64,000 bases of DNA. It comes from Candidatus Saccharimonadales bacterium. GTDB taxonomy: Bacteria; Patescibacteriota; Saccharimonadia; Saccharimonadales; EFPC-124. The notes beneath the pieces are model-generated. The model was given only the letters and a program-made list of their open reading frames with translations, ran no database searches and was not told the origin of the DNA. The translations under genes were made by a program, and so were the position numbers. Each line of letters starts with the position of its first letter. Within the stretch, counting starts at the first letter, position 1. Positions 2,959-57,474 of this stretch are shown here, in pieces. The stretch is taken from assembly GCA_050730875.1 (NCBI GenBank), contig JBOHNX010000001.1, positions 141,827 to 205,826 on the forward strand, written 5' to 3'.

Positions 2959-3873
2959 ATGTTCTGGCGAAAACAAAAAGAACCCGTTCGACAGCCACGG
3001 CTTATGGCCGGGCAAGATGATTACGTGTTTCGACGGAGCCGGACGCTAACGGGCAGCGTGTCGTCGCAGGTTACTGCAACGGCAGAAAAGCGCGGGCAAC
3101 TGAAGACCGACCGGTTAAAGTTGCACGAGCTAAAGGCGCATCGCCGGCATGTGCTGCGGCTGCTCGGCGTGGTTTTGCTGGCCTTGGGCGTGATGGTGTT
3201 TTTGCTTGCGAATTTTATTGTTTCACCACAGATTGCCAGTGCAGAACCAGGCGTTCGCCAGGCTGATGCTTCGAAGTACCACCAAGCTATTTACACGTAT
3301 TTTGGTGATCATCCGCTGGAGCGTTTTGGGTTTGCACTGAATGCCGAAGAGTTTCAGGAGCATCTTAAGCAGTCGCACGATGAGGTGCGTAGCGTAACGG
3401 TTGAGCGTGATTGGTATGGTGGTGACGTGCGTTTTATTTTGTATTTTCGGCAGCCGCTTTTGGTGTGGCGGAGTGCGGGCCAGCAGTTTTATGTAGATAA
3501 TCAGGGTGTTGCGTTTGACTACAATCATTTTGTTGAGCCGACGGTGGCGGTGGAGGACCAGTCCGGTATTACACCGGATCAAGCTTCGGGGGCAGTGGCG
3601 TCTACCCGATTCCTTGGTTTTTTGGGGCGTACGGTGGGTGCGATTAACTCCTATAACAAGGGTAAGGTCGTTGCGGTTATTATTCCGCGGTCGACTCGGC
3701 AAATTGATATTAAACTGGAGGGTCGCGATTATATTATTAAGACGCATATCGACCGCGATCCCCTGCAACAGGCTGAAGATATTGCTAATGCACTCAAGTA
3801 CTTCGATGTGCATGGTATTAAGCCGCAGTATGTTGATGTGCGGGTGGCGCACAAGGCGTTTTATAAGAATTAA
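2959..3873 (+). CDS. ftsQ: FtsQ/DivIB-like cell-division protein (single TM + POTRA-like domain)
   Basis: ORF 2917..3873; the Met at 2959 (MFWRKQ) is the more likely start. It has a TM helix (LLGVVLLALGVMVFLLANF) followed by a POTRA-like segment (VRSVTVERDWYGGDVRFILYFRQPLLVW...YVDNQGVAF). It lies after murG. Confidence 0.7.
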   Translation: MFWRKQKEPVRQPRLMAGQDDYVFRRSRTLTGSVSSQVTATAEKRGQLKTDRLKLHELKAHRRHVLRLLGVVLLALGVMVFLLANFIVSPQIASAEPGVRQADASKYHQAIYTYFGDHPLERFGFALNAEEFQEHLKQSHDEVRSVTVERDWYGGDVRFILYFRQPLLVWRSAGQQFYVDNQGVAFDYNHFVEPTVAVEDQSGITPDQASGAVASTRFLGFLGRTVGAINSYNKGKVVAVIIPRSTRQIDIKLEGRDYIIKTHIDRDPLQQAEDIANALKYFDVHGIKPQYVDVRVAHKAFYKN

Positions 3874-3888
3874 GCGGATGACCCGACC

Positions 3889-4023
3889 GCTGCTTTTCGT
3901 ACTATTCCTTCACAGAGCAAATGTGCCCGCTCTTCCTTAACCAACTGAAAGCCCTGAACTACAGGGTTTCAGTTGGTTACTCCAGAGCTACGATCCTCTG
4001 TGAAGGAATAGTACGAGCGCAGC
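3889..4023. repeat. 135-nt nested inverted repeat (rod-like hairpin)
   Basis: 3898-3917 is perfectly complementary to 3996-4015 (20 bp). The helix is extended by 3889-3893/4019-4023. An inner helix pairs 3929-3933 with 3984-3988. The innermost helix pairs 3938-3956 with 3962-3979 (18 bp, one bulge, 5-nt loop). Confidence 0.85.
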
Positions 4024-4305
4024 ATATCCTGGGGTATGCGGAAGAGGGTAGGGCGGAGGAGCTTTACTTACTAGGAGTCGCAAAGCTAAAAAGCCTACGG
4101 CATCACCCGCTCGATGGATAACTTATTGCTTGTGTTGATTAGCGGCAGAAGCAGACTACTCCGCTGCTCTCTTTTATGTTCTAATTTTGTTCTTGCTTTA
4201 AGTTATAGACCCACTCCAATATCGAAAAAACTATATAAAAATATTAAATTCAAAAAAAGCAAATAGTGTAGGGCGGAGGGTGGTAGGGAGTCGTGAAAAA
4301 ATATT

Positions 4306-4527
4306 ATGAAAATACAAAAAAGCAAATTTGCAAATGCGACTGTGGAAAAGTCAAATTACGACATGGCACGTTTTATGGGGTGCTGCCAGTCGGCTGGCGA
4401 CCTAAGCCGGTCGACAGTACAATACAAGTTTAAATGTAGCGGTGCGCGTAGTGTAATTACAGCCACATTAACGCCAAACTCCCGGAAAACTCCCCTAGTA
4501 AGACGATGTACCAATCATCTTCAGTAA
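4306..4527 (+). CDS. hypothetical small protein (very uncertain; alternative 46-codon GTG frame at 4293..4433)
   Basis: This is the only ORF of at least 60 aa in the 955-bp gap. GGAGG/GGGAG motifs lie upstream (4276-4290). A perfect 11-bp hairpin (4532-4542/4559-4569) follows the stop. No recognisable family. Confidence 0.2.
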   Translation: MKIQKSKFANATVEKSNYDMARFMGCCQSAGDLSRSTVQYKFKCSGARSVITATLTPNSRKTPLVRRCTNHLQ

Positions 4528-4828
4528 AATAATGTAATGTCGTAAAAGATATATTGTGCGACATTACATCTATATTAAACTATGTACACTTTCATCCATC
4601 TTCAGCCACCAATTTTCTTGTGTTTCGTCTATGATTTTTATGGCTCCTCATTCTTCTACTCGCCCGGGCTGCGTTCTCGCTTTAAACGAGTCATTATGGT
4701 TGTTTGATTACTTTATGTAGATTCATTTTGACTGCTAAACCAATTAACAGGGGTCGACCTCTATTATCGAGTATTCGATAGATTGTGTTCGTATTTTGTT
4801 CGTTTTATTTCTGTATGATTATTACTCC

Positions 4829-7525
4829 CTAGCGTAAGCGAAGTACAAAGTCGTTGTCTTGTTGCTCTTGTTGGGGCTGCGGCTGTTGCTGTTGTGGAGT
4901 GGGGTTTTGAGTCTTAGAACCGCCTCGTTTGCGTCCGCGCGAACGGGAACGCTTGCCGCTACCTGGCGTTGCTTGCTGGCCTGATTGTTGCTGTGGAGCG
5001 GCTGGTGCGGGCTGTGGGGGCTTTTGCGTTTGAGCGGCGGGCGCTGTTGTGGGTTGTTTTGATGGTGGCTGTGTCTGTGGGGCAGTAAATCGACCAGACG
5101 CGGCGGGGATGAGAGTTTGTTTAATCACCTTCTGAATTTCGGCCTCAACTTCTGCCCGAGGTCGCGAGTAATGGCGACGTGTGTTTTCGATAATCTGCGG
5201 CGAGTAGTCATTTTGCGCGGCTGGGAGGGTTAGGGTGGTTGCAGAGAACGCCGGTGCCTTCTCTCCCCTAATGACCATGCTAATGACAAAATGTCGGTTG
5301 TGCATTTGCATGAGGTCAGCGGCTTCAAACTGCGGTTCGAACTGCTTAGAAAGCAGTGGCGCATCGTCGGGGCTGACCCGGAAGGAAATGACAGTACCAA
5401 CGTTCCCGAATACGGCATCGCGTACGGTATCGTTCATCTGTGAAATATATTGGTTGGCTACAGTTAGGTTAAGGCCGTATTTACGTGCCTCACTTAAGAT
5501 AGTTGCAAACGAATCGGTCGCGAAGTTTTGGAATTCGTCCACGTACAGGTAGAACGGCTTGCGATCTTCGATGTGCGGAATATCAGAACGGCTCATGGCG
5601 GCCAGCTGGATTTTGGTTACTAGGAACGAGCCCAGCACGGCGGCGTTGTCTTCCCCTACTAACCCTTTGCTCAGGTTCACGATCAAAATTTTGCCTTCGT
5701 CCATGATTTTACGGATGTTAAAAGTGCTTTTTGGCTGGCCAATGATGTTACGGATGATTGGATTAGCAGTAAAGGCACCCACCTTGTTAAGCACTGGGGC
5801 AATGGCTTCGGCAGCGAATTTATCGTTCCAGCTCGCAAATTCTACCGTCCAGAACTGGCGCACTACGGCGTCATCGACATATGTTAGGACCTCGTTGCGG
5901 AACTTTTTATCGGTGAGCATGCGGGTGATATCGAGTAGTGTTGTGTTTGGATAATCCAAAAGCGCTAAGATTGTGTAGCGCAAGATGTATTCCAAACGTG
6001 GCCCCCAACTTTCGCCGAACATGCGTTTTAGGACACCAATAATTTCAGAACTAATATTGTTCTTCATGGCTGGATTGATGACTTCCATCGGGTTGAAGCC
6101 AATCGGGTATGCTGTGTCTGCTGGGTTAAAGTAGATCACATCCTTGGCGCGCGACTGAGGGATAAACCGCAGGTTGTTAATGGCAAAGTCGCCATGTGGA
6201 TCGATAATGGCGAAACCGTGGTTATGGAAGACGTCGCTGAGTGCAAACAGCTCCAACAGACCAGATTTACCAGTACCGGTTTGGCCAATGATATACACGT
6301 GACGGCCGCGGTCTGAACGGTACAGGCCAAATTGCTGGTTAATCCCGCGGAAGTTCGTTAGACCGAACGCACTTATTTCGGCATCGGCCTCGACACCGAT
6401 GACAACTGGCAGTTTTGCAGGTGGTTCGGCTGTTTTTGAGCTTGCCCAGACGATGTTCGGTGTCTCCACGTTGGTGTGTGGTAAGTGGAAGACACTGGCG
6501 AGCTCTTCGATATTTAAAATGTAGCCGCGATCAATAAAGAACCGCGCACGATATTGCGCCAGGCCGTCGGGCGAGAACGAAGAGTTCTTCATCTGGAAGC
6601 CATTCAGGTTCGTACTGTTGAACTGTTTGAACGTACCAACAATCGCTTGCATGCGCAGTCGGGCGGTTTGTTGGCTGTTACCCAAATACGTCAGCCGTAT
6701 TTTTACTTGGTAGCCTAATTTAATGCTCTTCTTCTCTACTTCGGTGATCCGGCCTTTTTCGCGTTCGCTAATTTCTGCCGGGCCACTGCTGCCTTGATTT
6801 TCTGGTGGTTTCCAGAGAGCTTCAAGCGCACGCAGCAAATAATAGCCAAGACCACCGCCGAGGGCAGCACTACTGCTCCCTCCCCCACTCTTCGCACGGG
6901 CTGTGTAGCGACTGGCTTTGCGGTGCCAGTCATCCGAAATTGGGCGCGCCAATACCTGAATCCACATTTCTTCGCCGGTTTCTTCGAGTTTGGCTAGTGT
7001 AGCGGTCACGGCTGCTAAGGGGTCAACCTCGAAGCTCTGGAATGTTTTAATCGGTAGCACTTCGTTATCGATTAATGAAAGTTCAGCGGTATGCACAACC
7101 TGCTGTTTGATATCGCGAGCTGCGTAATCTTCTTCTGCAACATGAATCTGCACAGTTGGATATTGCGCGTAAATTTGGCCTTCAACAAAGTTTTGCAGGT
7201 ATGTCGGCACCCATACGTAAAAGCGTATGCGTTTGTCGATGGCGGCGATTTCAAAGCTGATGTGTTCCTGCAAGCCGCCCTGCGTGGCAAGCTCACGCTT
7301 CGAGCGCAAAATACCGTGCAAACTGGCGAACATTTGCTCGGCTGCCAGTTCTTGCTTCTCGTTTGTACGAGGGATCTCGAGGATTAATAGGGTGTGGTCA
7401 AGATCACGAACCACCTTAGCTCGACGGTTGTTCCGAAGGGCTAAGTAACCAAGGACTGCGGCGATTGGCAGCCAGATGTACCACTTGCTCAGCAAGCCGA
7501 AAATCAACGAGAGCACCACGTCCAT
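4829..7525 (-). CDS. membrane-anchored VirD4/TraG/TraD-like (FtsK-HerA superfamily) ATPase with P/Q-rich C-terminal tail
   Basis: 898 aa. N-terminal TM helix. Walker A YIIGQTGTGKSG. Walker B-like FYLYVDEFQNF. Coupling-protein-like LNLTVANQYISQ. The last ~110 aa are low-complexity P/Q/G/R. Confidence 0.75.
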   Translation of the reverse strand: MDVVLSLIFGLLSKWYIWLPIAAVLGYLALRNNRRAKVVRDLDHTLLILEIPRTNEKQELAAEQMFASLHGILRSKRELATQGGLQEHISFEIAAIDKRIRFYVWVPTYLQNFVEGQIYAQYPTVQIHVAEEDYAARDIKQQVVHTAELSLIDNEVLPIKTFQSFEVDPLAAVTATLAKLEETGEEMWIQVLARPISDDWHRKASRYTARAKSGGGSSSAALGGGLGYYLLRALEALWKPPENQGSSGPAEISEREKGRITEVEKKSIKLGYQVKIRLTYLGNSQQTARLRMQAIVGTFKQFNSTNLNGFQMKNSSFSPDGLAQYRARFFIDRGYILNIEELASVFHLPHTNVETPNIVWASSKTAEPPAKLPVVIGVEADAEISAFGLTNFRGINQQFGLYRSDRGRHVYIIGQTGTGKSGLLELFALSDVFHNHGFAIIDPHGDFAINNLRFIPQSRAKDVIYFNPADTAYPIGFNPMEVINPAMKNNISSEIIGVLKRMFGESWGPRLEYILRYTILALLDYPNTTLLDITRMLTDKKFRNEVLTYVDDAVVRQFWTVEFASWNDKFAAEAIAPVLNKVGAFTANPIIRNIIGQPKSTFNIRKIMDEGKILIVNLSKGLVGEDNAAVLGSFLVTKIQLAAMSRSDIPHIEDRKPFYLYVDEFQNFATDSFATILSEARKYGLNLTVANQYISQMNDTVRDAVFGNVGTVISFRVSPDDAPLLSKQFEPQFEAADLMQMHNRHFVISMVIRGEKAPAFSATTLTLPAAQNDYSPQIIENTRRHYSRPRAEVEAEIQKVIKQTLIPAASGRFTAPQTQPPSKQPTTAPAAQTQKPPQPAPAAPQQQSGQQATPGSGKRSRSRGRKRGGSKTQNPTPQQQQPQPQQEQQDNDFVLRLR

Positions 7526-8841: not shown

Positions 8842-9253
8842 AAAACGGGCTCTCGCGGTTGCAAGAGCCCTTATGGAGGGATGGCACCGGCCTAGGAAAC
8901 GCAGGCGGGCTCGGTCTCCCGAGGTGCGTACATCTAGGCCGGTGCCTGGCGTCGGCTGCAGTCTCCCTCAAGCCTGCCGACGCCGCGGTTCTCGTCGTCC
9001 CAATGGGCCCGAACATGACGAGAACCAGTGAGGCTGCCCATGAGTCCCCCCAGGCCCCAAGACAACCTCACGAAAGGACCACGCCGCAACGCTCGGGGGT
9101 GCAGCTGCGGCGTGGTCCAGCCTTTAGCCCACCGTAGCGCGCCGCGTCCCTGGGGAGGCCGTGCCTTCCGGATGAAGGTACGTCGCGTACGCTACGGTGG
9201 GGGCTTGTATCATTCGGCTGATTGCAGCCGAACAAGTTCACTATTAAGGTGTA
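8842..9253. ncRNA. unassigned GC-rich highly structured element (candidate ncRNA, strand unresolved)
   Basis: Seven or more long helices: 8883-8895/8934-8946, 8948-8956/8976-8984, 8987-8998/9015-9026, 9028-9033/9066-9071, 9076-9087/9107-9118, 9128-9139/9190-9201 and 9161-9168/9174-9181. A possible pseudoknot pairs 9048-9054 with 9149-9155. Two G.U pairs favour the + strand. A promoter (TTGATG-17-TATTAT, 9260-9288) and a terminator hairpin with U run (8847-8870) favour the - strand. No credible ORF. Confidence 0.55.
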
Positions 9254-23794: not shown

Positions 23795-24274
23795 CTATCT
23801 TTTCTGTTTTTTGTCTTCGGGGTGAATGTCAACAGCTATCATTTCTACAATATGTGCGCTTCTGTCAATAAAAAAGAAGCCGCGATATGAACCTGCGTCA
23901 AATTCACTTAATTCAGCGTCGGGTGTTAGGCCGGAGGCGTATTTTTTATAGTGATTAGCCACTTTTACTTTTTTAACATCAAACGGAAGGTTGTACACAT
24001 CTTGTTCAGAAGAGCAGCGGCACATATTCTTATAGGCTTCAATCACTTTTCTTAGAGGAGCAGTCTTGGGTATTGTCTTACCTTGGCATAAATCATCTCT
24101 ATAAAATCTATGACCGATAGTAAAATTTTTCTCACCCTCGTCTTGGATGCTGTTTGACTGTGCGACGCTAGCGGGTAGCCTGACTGATGGGTCAGTCGCT
24201 TTGCGAGCGACTTCTTTGATTTCTTTTTGTAGTTTTCTACGTTCAGGCTTTGACAGTTTTGAGTAATCGGGCAT
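23795..24274 (-). CDS. putative toxin partner of Panacea antitoxin; C-terminus RelE/ParE-like
   Basis: It overlaps the upstream DUF4065 gene by 32 nt. The C-terminal GSYRGFFFIDRSAHIVEMIAVDIHPE resembles the RelE/ParE 'GDYRIIY..D....V.I..IGHR' strand pattern. Confidence 0.45.
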   Translation of the reverse strand: MPDYSKLSKPERRKLQKEIKEVARKATDPSVRLPASVAQSNSIQDEGEKNFTIGHRFYRDDLCQGKTIPKTAPLRKVIEAYKNMCRCSSEQDVYNLPFDVKKVKVANHYKKYASGLTPDAELSEFDAGSYRGFFFIDRSAHIVEMIAVDIHPEDKKQKR

Positions 24275-24713
24275 AGAAGCTCTTCATCAGATCAGGGTCA
24301 ATGGTGATACTGGTGCGCTCGTCTGTTTCGGCGTTTCCTCTAGCGGCTAGCCAGGGCTCTTCGTTGTGGGTCAAGGCTTCTAGATAGTCGGCATCAAACT
24401 TCCCATAAATTGCCCAGATATCTTCTAAGACAGCTTGTTCCTTAGCAGCTAGCTTGCCGACTTGCGGCTCTTCTGCGATGGTGTTGTAGCTATATTTTTT
24501 GTATTTGCTATAGAGAGTTCTTATGGCCGGTCCATGTATCCAAGCCTCTATAGGGTCAGTAAACAGGGGGTTGTCGTTAAATACTAAGTTCCACGCTTGG
24601 GCGTAGTAAACGAGTTTCTGTAGCTTTTTATTAGTTATCACCTTGTCTGCATCGTGAGAGGTTGCAATAAAATAATTAGCCACCCTCTGTAATTTTTCGC
24701 TTGGCTCATTCAT
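24243..24713 (-). CDS. DUF4065 / Panacea-domain (SocA/GepA-like) antitoxin
   Basis: ITNKKLQKLVYYAQAWNLVFNDNPLFTDPIEAWIHGPAIRTLYSKYKKY is the hallmark DUF4065 core. Confidence 0.75.
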   Translation of the reverse strand: MNEPSEKLQRVANYFIATSHDADKVITNKKLQKLVYYAQAWNLVFNDNPLFTDPIEAWIHGPAIRTLYSKYKKYSYNTIAEEPQVGKLAAKEQAVLEDIWAIYGKFDADYLEALTHNEEPWLAARGNAETDERTSITIDPDLMKSFYARLLKTVKA

Positions 24714-37205: not shown

Positions 37206-37210
37206 CAATA

Positions 37211-37240
37211 AAAAGCCTTACGTTTTTCGTAAGGCTTTTT
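37211..37240. terminator. bidirectional intrinsic terminator
   Basis: AAAAGCCTTACG/CGTAAGGCTTTT stem flanked by A and T runs. Confidence 0.75.
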
Positions 37241-37245
37241 ATTTT

Positions 37246-55729: not shown

Positions 55730-57346
<1,617 letters not shown>

Positions 57347-57474
57347 GGATGGAAATGGGCGCTCGTATAATTCTTTGGAGGCACCTCGGAAGCACAAAAT
57401 GTGCTATTCAAGCACATTTTGTGACCCGCACGTGCCGAGAAAGAAGTTATACGAAAAGCCCCAACAAATAAACC

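Follow-up and report, generated by a model that had tools for sequence, protein, structure and literature searches.

The dcw cluster in the 64,000-nt stretch of DNA from a Candidatus Saccharimonadales bacterium analyzed here (the window) comprises mraY, ftsW, murG and ftsQ, and a long, nearly perfect palindrome follows directly behind its last gene. A sequence-only reading had set this palindrome at the place where ftsA and ftsZ would be expected and had left open whether it is an RNase III substrate, a hairpin active as single-stranded DNA or a 6S-like rod. What, then, is this hairpin, and has it anything to do with the way in which the cluster ends? We regard it as one copy of a lineage-specific, non-coding palindromic family (~105-170 bp) of the MITE/REPIN-like kind and not as a dedicated cell-division RNA, a reading to which we assign a probability of roughly 0.6. 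The coordinates of the features on which this view is built are collected in Table 1.

Table 1. Features of the hairpin behind ftsQ (copy B), of its short relative in the atp operon (hp3) and of their flanks; positions are those of the window.
Feature	Positions	Strand	Remarks
FtsQ-like gene, last of the dcw cluster	2959..3873	+	100% identical to P0001 (Candidatus Saccharimonadales MAG protein); homologues named FtsQ by JGI; L001 10001-10915
Whole copy B insert, ~160-170 nt, from the ftsQ stop to the G-rich GGTAGGG motif	3874..4043	+	Absent from six relatives (alignment A3)
Left direct repeat GCGGA (TAAGCGGA with the ftsQ stop), possible target-site duplication	3874..3878	.	Read from the sequence
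Rod-like nested hairpin (copy B)	3889..4023	+	RNA z about -10.6 to -12.6, DNA z -12.3
5' basal module GCTGC-TT-TTCGTA, made up of the closing helix, a small asymmetric loop and the first part of the long helix	3889..3901	+	Conserved in 3/3 copies
Core shared unchanged by copies A and B, 5' half, ACAGAGCAAATGTGCCCGCTC; covers the 11-nt strand of the internal loop	3912..3932	+	Invariant 21-column run, alignment A2
Apical bulged helix with 5-nt loop; tip AAAGCCCTG...CAGGGTTTC conserved	3938..3979	+	Lower part differs between A and B, always compensated
3' half of the invariant core, CTCCAGAGCTACGATCCTCTGT	3980..4001	+	Invariant 22-column run, alignment A2
3' basal module TACGAG-C-GCAGC, partner of the 5' module	4011..4023	+	Conserved base
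Right direct repeat GCGGA (TATGCGGA)	4036..4040	.	Read from the sequence
Left direct repeat AAATAA flanking the hp3 insert, includes the atpD stop	57341..57346	.	Read from the sequence
hp3-carrying insert	57347..57464	.	Gene calls for L036 and L037, alignment A5
hp3, short-form member, 105-nt rod hairpin	57357..57461	-	Fold -52.4 kcal/mol, z -8.15; ssDNA z -8.5
Right direct repeat AAATAA flanking the hp3 insert	57465..57470	.	Read from the sequence

The inverted repeats behind ftsQ sit where they had been placed from the sequence alone, and the outer arms proved to be complementary at 21/21 positions (3897-3917 versus 3996-4016), with a second pair of arms (3929-3953/3964-3988) nested within them. 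RNA folding of positions 3880-4035 gives one rod of -83 kcal/mol (shuffle mean -38.4; z = -10.55), and none of 200 shuffled sequences folded as well. Folding also reproduces the closing helix 3889-3893/4019-4023, the GCTCT/AGAGC helix, the bulged apical helix and the 5-nt loop that had been noted earlier. One element of the earlier description needs correction: instead of a single asymmetric internal loop, the rod contains three interruptions, namely a basal asymmetric loop (UU versus C), the 11/7 loop, which is partly closed by four weak pairs in the MFE structure, and a loop of ~4x4 nt below the apical helix. The use of ssDNA folding parameters yields the identical rod (Table 1), and the fold is about equally strong on both strands, so that the strand of the element cannot be assigned from folding energy.

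To place this hairpin in its genetic context, we compared the locus with those of eight distinct lineages fetched through homologues of FtsQ, the next-best of which are only 66-69% identical to the protein encoded in the window. In seven of these eight lineages, ftsQ is followed by a non-coding block of 600-790 nt, past which the opposite strand encodes a DUF8128/TrwB-type ATPase and a sigma70_r4/HARE-HTH protein, in most cases with a 198-aa gene in between; the eighth lineage (L018) retains the non-coding block and has other genes downstream. No FtsZ signature was found in the window or in the 372 kb of fetched loci. The dcw cluster does stop at ftsQ without ftsA and ftsZ, as had been observed. 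Describing the hairpin as lying where these two genes would be expected is misleading all the same, since all relatives examined have ftsQ and then the conserved non-coding block. That the relatives keep the same order behind ftsQ means that a cluster ending with this gene is normal in the lineage and not an anomaly tied to the hairpin.

The neighboring genes offered several observations in their own right. The ATPase gene on the minus strand of the window (4829-7525) encodes a protein of 898 aa with TrwB/TraG-D/HerA-type domains, and the versions found in the relatives also carry DUF8128. It always adjoins a dif-like site (see below) and the end of the dcw cluster, and might be the FtsK-like DNA translocase of the lineage. 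Neither the window nor L013 has the 198-aa gene that, in most relatives, lies between the ATPase gene and the non-coding block.

A low-stringency blastn search uncovered a second copy of the hairpin (copy A) at positions 2397-2533 of L001, a Logan contig that reaches 7 kb upstream of the window. Copy A is 82% identical to the hairpin behind ftsQ (copy B) and has the same orientation; it is located 7.5 kb upstream of the latter, just outside the window, where the stop codon of an NTP-transferase gene precedes it and the promoter region of mraZ follows. Its predicted fold is that of copy B, with a rod of -79.6 kcal/mol (z -8.8). Copies A and B hence bracket the dcw operon from mraZ to ftsQ in the same orientation, and both lie 8-16 nt after the stop codons of co-directional genes. 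Their likeness continues beyond the rod to about position 4043 (ATGCGGAAGA).

The way in which the two copies differ is informative. Among the 51 predicted base pairs, ten are changed on both sides with pairing kept, while not a single pair is changed on one side only and none is broken; in addition, one base pair has been deleted on both sides, again in a compensated manner. Columns that differ between A and B make up 20 of the 102 paired and 10 of the 37 unpaired ones. At the divergence of the two copies, about 16 one-sided changes would be expected under independent mutation, and the finding of none argues that pairing has been actively maintained. No difference between A and B is seen at the ends (GCTGCTTTTCG / CGAGCGCAGC), in columns 26-46 and 94-115, which form a central module, or at the tip of the apical helix. 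The significance of the invariant runs of 21-22 columns is modest, as ~0.18 such runs are expected by chance at 22% divergence, and this core is not kept in the short copy described next; for these two reasons, we do not rely on a conserved core.

This third copy (hp3) was detected by a local inverted-repeat scan and through shared termini recognized by eye, and was then checked with a regular expression; a covariance model (R1) built from copies A and B matched only its two training copies (copy B also through the overlapping contig L001) and missed it. hp3 occupies the spacer that separates the stop codon of atpD (57346) from the start codon of atpC (57475), and its orientation is opposite to that of copies A and B. 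Read as its reverse complement, it starts with GGGGCTTTTCGTATAAC and ends with AAAGAATTATACGAGCGCCC, and it has the base GCTTTTCGTA...TACGAGCGC in common with copy B. The architecture of the base is that of copies A and B as well, in that a closing helix of 4-5 bp is followed by a small asymmetric loop and then by a long helix starting TTCG/CGAG; where the outer helix departs from that of copy B, the changes are compensated. All three copies (3/3) possess common terminal inverted repeats of the form GCTTTTCG(TA).../(TA)CGAGCGC; in the 81 kb of this genome that were analyzed, the exact GCTTTTCG...CGAGCGC pairing is confined to these hairpins.

With three copies in hand, one may ask whether the palindromes could stem from faulty assembly or from a chance inverted duplication restricted to one strain. 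Such a concern is natural for a genome that is a MAG and for which both assemblies derive from the same sample; nevertheless, copy B has the identical sequence in the NCBI MAG window and in the independent Logan assembly, three diverged copies possess a common base, the asymmetric internal loops are identical in copies A and B, and an artefact would not give compensated divergence. We consider this explanation barely credible.

Comparison of orthologous loci shows the sites without the element. In six relatives the GGTAGGG motif stands directly after the ftsQ stop codon, while the window has ~170 extra nt first (3874 to about 4043); the hairpin after ftsQ is absent in all eight relative lineages, and the ~170-nt gap is shown directly in six of them. 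A corresponding picture emerges at the atp operon. In L036 and L037, the closest relatives as judged by AtpD (87-88% identity), atpD and atpC are 2 nt apart or overlap, compared with a spacer of 128 nt in the window. Removal of the hp3 insert together with one AAATAA gives GACGTAAAATAAACCATG, the compact junction GACGTAAAATAA-ACCATG, which matches that of L036. The relatives with empty sites are distant (FtsQ 66-69%, AtpD 87-88% identical), and at this distance the comparison shows gain in the lineage of the window or loss elsewhere, not recent movement. No family member was found in DNA from the relatives, either by the R1 model (about 290 kb) or by a regular expression combining the termini with a hairpin (258 kb).

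Both inserts are flanked by direct repeats, which measure 6 bp at hp3 (AAATAA) and, at copy B (GCGGA), 5 bp if exact or 8 bp if one mismatch is allowed. These repeats are short, one of them lies in an A-rich context, and copy A lacks a clear one. The assignment of GCGGA as a target-site duplication of copy B is suggestive only, as copy A has a similar ATGCGA at that place, so that the motif could be part of the element instead.

The sequence-only reading had proposed that dispersed copies would make the hairpin a MITE/REP-type repeat, and in this regard the outcome is positive: three related copies are present in 81 kb, and relatives have empty orthologous sites. The same two findings leave a dedicated or housekeeping ncRNA without support. 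Hence, among the options that had been left open, a mobile hairpin active as single-stranded DNA survives, a dedicated RNA does not, and membership in the IS200/IS605 group is not shown.

A gene for a small RNA tied to cell division, be it a 6S-like rod or another regulatory RNA, would account for the very stable structure and for the compensated changes between two copies. Yet the element occurs in several copies, one of them a short variant that lies inverted in the atp operon, and is conserved in no relative examined; no promoter-like site was called, and no Rfam family matched even at E<=10. For the window as a whole, searches at the Rfam gathering threshold returned three tRNAs only, while relaxing the threshold to E<=10 over positions 3700-4900 brought up nothing but chance matches of the miRNA type. 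Nearly perfect helices of 20 bp are unusual for 6S RNA, which requires a large open bubble at its center. We therefore view a dedicated small RNA gene as very improbable. The open reading frame at positions 3921-4121 was considered as a gene for a small protein and rejected; its counterpart in copy A stops after 11 codons, and it has no Pfam match.

A more serious competitor is an RNA hairpin that serves the host as a 3' stabilizer, an RNase III site or a U-tract-independent terminator/insulator at both borders of the dcw cluster, perhaps as a domesticated repeat. The placement of copies A and B, in the same orientation, 8 and 15 nt after stop codons and on either side of mraZ...ftsQ, is what such a function would lead one to expect, and so are their perfect helices of 20-22 bp, which RNase III accepts, and the compensation of all stem changes. 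This proposal has difficulty with hp3, which is reversed and lies between atpD and atpC, two genes that are translationally coupled in relatives and between which a terminator would be harmful. It also has to contend with the absence of the element from every relative examined, though the surrounding non-coding block is conserved. Moreover, no U-tract and no terminator-like signature are found at the hairpin copies, in line with the earlier statement that copy B is not an ordinary terminator, while U-tract terminators do exist in this genome (e.g., 37207-37243 in the window), and the two strands fold equally well. On balance, a function for the host appears unlikely to us.

The family as we see it comprises three copies at three unrelated loci in 81 kb, or ~1 per 27 kb, in a genome whose contig measures at least 556 kb. 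To look for further members, we scanned GTDB representative genomes (the source genome is not among them), JGI metagenomes and viral contigs for exact matches to two 19-nt strings invariant between A and B; no further member was recovered, and chance matches were confined to planctomycete coding DNA and a gut contig. A gapped pattern of the termini gave four chance matches in viral contigs, none of them a rod hairpin, and blastn against phage and plasmid collections gave no match. With no further member in these public scans, the family is defined by three sequences. No transposase, HUH/RAYT protein or other candidate mobilizing enzyme is encoded among the about 50 ORFs of the window, and the literature that we searched yielded no account of such repeat elements in Saccharibacteria.

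The non-coding block downstream of copy B (4046-4828) deserves a separate description. This block of ~600-780 nt lies between the convergent ftsQ and DUF8128/TrwB ATPase genes and is conserved at the DNA level in relatives whose FtsQ proteins are only ~66% identical. Pieces in common are ACTACTCCGCT..CTAAGTTCGWATTTTGTTCTA, with a similar TGTTCTATTTTTGTT at the far end, GGGAGGYGTGAAAAA..CATGAAAA..AAATTGCAAA..TGTGGAAAA, and AAAAGTCCCCTA; G-rich GTAGGGCGGAGG motifs recur at positions 4048-4059 and 4267-4279. A small ORF in the block (4306-4527) is not conserved as a protein, and the block has no Rfam match. At positions 4537-4564 it contains an invariant 28-mer, ATGTCGTAAAAGATATATTGTGCGACAT, composed of ATGTCGTAAAA-GATATA-TTGTGCGACAT, an 11-6-11 layout like that of a dif/Xer site. 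All close relatives have the 28-mer downstream of ftsQ, and so do 17 IMG/VR contigs with FtsQ proteins of only 28-39% identity. In one locus (L031), an inovirus-like element of 5.4 kb with genes for a Zot-like ATPase and a rolling-circle replication initiator lies between a full (2062-2085) and a partial (7497-7520) copy of the site. This is the arrangement expected when a filamentous phage has integrated at a site of the Xer/dif type, and the 28-mer hence appears to behave as a site at which Xer-exploiting elements integrate. Throughout the window, GC skew stays positive without a flip, which leaves a replication terminus at the dif-like site unsupported; our literature search yielded no paper on dif sites of Saccharibacteria.

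The variable middle of the conserved block is itself a place where palindromes are found. An indel distinguishes L002 (7140-7200) from L003 and L004, near-identical strains with the same FtsQ protein; in L002, a perfect hairpin (CACCGTGGCTCAA...TTGAGCCACGGTG) owes its 5' arm to this indel, and the arm is missing in L003 and L004. L015 has a different perfect hairpin of 24 bp at the place of the L002 indel. These cases suggest that palindromes arise or turn over readily in the middle of the block, possibly by template switching.

The dif-like 28-mer lies 520 nt downstream of copy B, and inovirus-like elements integrate at it in distant relatives. One could therefore take the rod, which folds well as ssDNA, for a recombination or replication site left by an integrated element (attC-like, a folded attP of the CTX type, or an sso/oriT-like site), maybe tied to the dif-like site. 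None of the copies is accompanied by cargo genes, however, and they occupy three unrelated loci; their similarity to the arms of the 28-mer does not go beyond 5-mers, attC cores (GTTRRRY) and a nearby integrase are lacking, and collections of viral, phage and plasmid sequences contain no match. This origin strikes us as improbable. Two specific candidates of this kind were discarded: a CTX-like folded Xer attP, given that the element has no likeness to the arms of the 28-mer and that its copies do not sit at the dif-like site, and an integron attC, since ends of the type GCTGCTTTTCG/CGAGCGCAGC contain no R''/R' core sites (RYYYAAC/GTTRRRY), no integrase is encoded nearby and there is no array.

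How does a MITE/REPIN-like palindromic family, our preferred reading, compare with known systems? REPINs are REP doublets that form hairpins and are mobilized by RAYT transposases, and they follow a pattern in which the ends are conserved and the variable interior stays paired (Bertels and Rainey, 2011; PMC3116915). The hairpins studied here resemble them in being extragenic, non-coding and symmetric over roughly 100 nt, in forming one long ssDNA or RNA hairpin, in showing compensatory interior changes, and in occurring, as REPINs usually do, as dispersed single copies. They differ in that no RAYT is encoded in the 81 kb sampled, in that their ends are not recognizable REP sequences (REPINs have a 5' GTAG; no terminal GTAG is present here, and CTAC occurs only inside the A/B core), in their number (three copies in 81 kb versus tens to hundreds), and in their greater length (137-139 nt) with conserved asymmetric internal loops. 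Furthermore, REPINs have been described mainly in Proteobacteria and in some Cyanobacteria, whereas the host here is a CPR bacterium.

The likeness to MITEs consists in dispersed, small (105-170 nt), non-coding copies with common terminal inverted repeats, in size variants with the same ends, in short flanking direct repeats and in presence or absence at orthologous sites, here of distant relatives. In contrast to known MITEs, the elements resemble no known family in sequence (searches of Rfam, phages and plasmids gave no match) and have no parent IS in the window, the length of the target-site duplication is inconsistent across the three copies, and the stems vary with full compensation where the terminal repeats of classical MITEs are conserved in sequence. 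Among bacterial MITEs with long terminal inverted repeats, the Correia/NEMIS elements of Neisseria and the ERIC/IRU elements of enterobacteria come close, being non-autonomous palindromic insertions of 100-170 bp at gene ends and inside operons. These elements are co-transcribed and form long RNA hairpins, and those of the Correia type are cut by RNase III. The ends of IS200/IS605 elements, which the sequence-only reading had named, and PATEs (palindrome-associated transposable elements) are comparable in their dependence on hairpins, in their activity as single strands and in needing no long target-site duplications. Each of those elements, however, has a pair of short subterminal hairpins that are separate from one another, and inserts on the 3' side of a fixed tetra- or pentanucleotide; the element studied here is a single rod, no motif is common to its three 5' flanks and no TnpA/TnpB gene is found nearby. 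Membership in the REPINs or in any named MITE family is accordingly not established, there being no mobilizing enzyme among the ORFs of the window and no consistent target-site duplication.

Two further systems could be set aside. An intrinsic terminator would share the position of a stem-loop right after a stop codon; the stem is ten times longer here, and the missing U-tract together with the location of hp3 inside the atp operon rules it out. TIGR arrays, considered since they are known in CPR bacteria, consist of tandem units with two alternating repeats of 8-12 nt and 9-nt spacers, or of tandem box C/D stem-loops, beside a Tas gene encoding a Nop-domain protein (PMC12045711); the element is a single rod without tandem units, and no Nop-domain gene lies nearby.

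For a MITE/REPIN-like family, a plausible course of events can be outlined. The element would be, or would have been, copied as a folded single strand by an enzyme that is encoded elsewhere in the genome and recognizes the base of the hairpin; in this reading, each copy is an insertion at the very end of a gene. Only lineages competent to form the hairpin would propagate, and under this model of copying every change in the stem would come to be compensated; templated repair within the palindrome may be an alternative source of compensation. Transcribed within the flanking operons, the element would simply form a long RNA hairpin, either 3' or intercistronic, which could incidentally affect the processing or stability of the mRNA without being needed for dcw function. 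A bolder version of these ideas posits a CPR-specific class of hairpin replicators or structured modules, in which the base (closing helix, UU/C loop and TTCG/CGAG) is the site of a single-strand-specific enzyme, and in which copies A and B have been co-opted as a boundary of the dcw cluster, e.g., as an RNase III site or insulator that sets transcript ends; we judge this version to be rather unlikely.

The hairpins thus seem to form a family that is itself new but belongs to a well-known type of selfish or co-opted DNA. If so, even the tiny and tightly packed genomes of CPR bacteria host such palindromic DNA, which is tolerated at stop codons and even between atpD and atpC, and the fully compensated divergence of copies A and B offers a clean natural example of selection, or of templated repair, acting on the fold of a nucleic acid. 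For genome annotation, the hairpin would then not be entered as a cell-division RNA; the lack of ftsA and ftsZ behind ftsQ is the usual state of the lineage.

Several minor observations concern other parts of the window and its flanks. The NTP_transferase gene that precedes copy A (L001:1571-2390, upstream of the window) is broken up into a pair of overlapping ORFs of 141 and 142 aa, and its counterpart in the relative L011 is a single gene of 275 aa; the split may reflect a frameshift, a pseudogene or a sequencing error. Upstream of mraZ (L001:2560-2660, L011:2560-2660), a conserved motif (TTTTTCCCCAGAAWTGTGGAAAA) is accompanied by tandem repeats of the GTGGGTAG type, and these motifs may be MraZ operator boxes. 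A minus-strand gene at positions 24243-24713 codes for a SocA/Panacea-domain antitoxin-like protein and overlaps an upstream ORF of 159 aa without a Pfam match; the two are a possible toxin-antitoxin pair. A non-coding stretch of ~370 nt between the sigma70_r4/HARE-HTH gene and topA (8845-9215) is GC-rich (~67% versus ~50% for the genome) and contains several strong hairpins, with 110-nt windows that fold to -63 kcal/mol at the strongest; it is not conserved in the relatives and has no Rfam match, and may be another lineage-specific insertion or a structured RNA. Finally, ~7-10 kb beyond the end of the window, L016:1-2700 encodes a large serine recombinase (Resolvase and Recombinase domains) and a Replic_Relax protein, with a YcaO/nitroreductase gene (L016:5350-7527) between this region and the window end; the region is probably an integrated mobile element adjoining the window.
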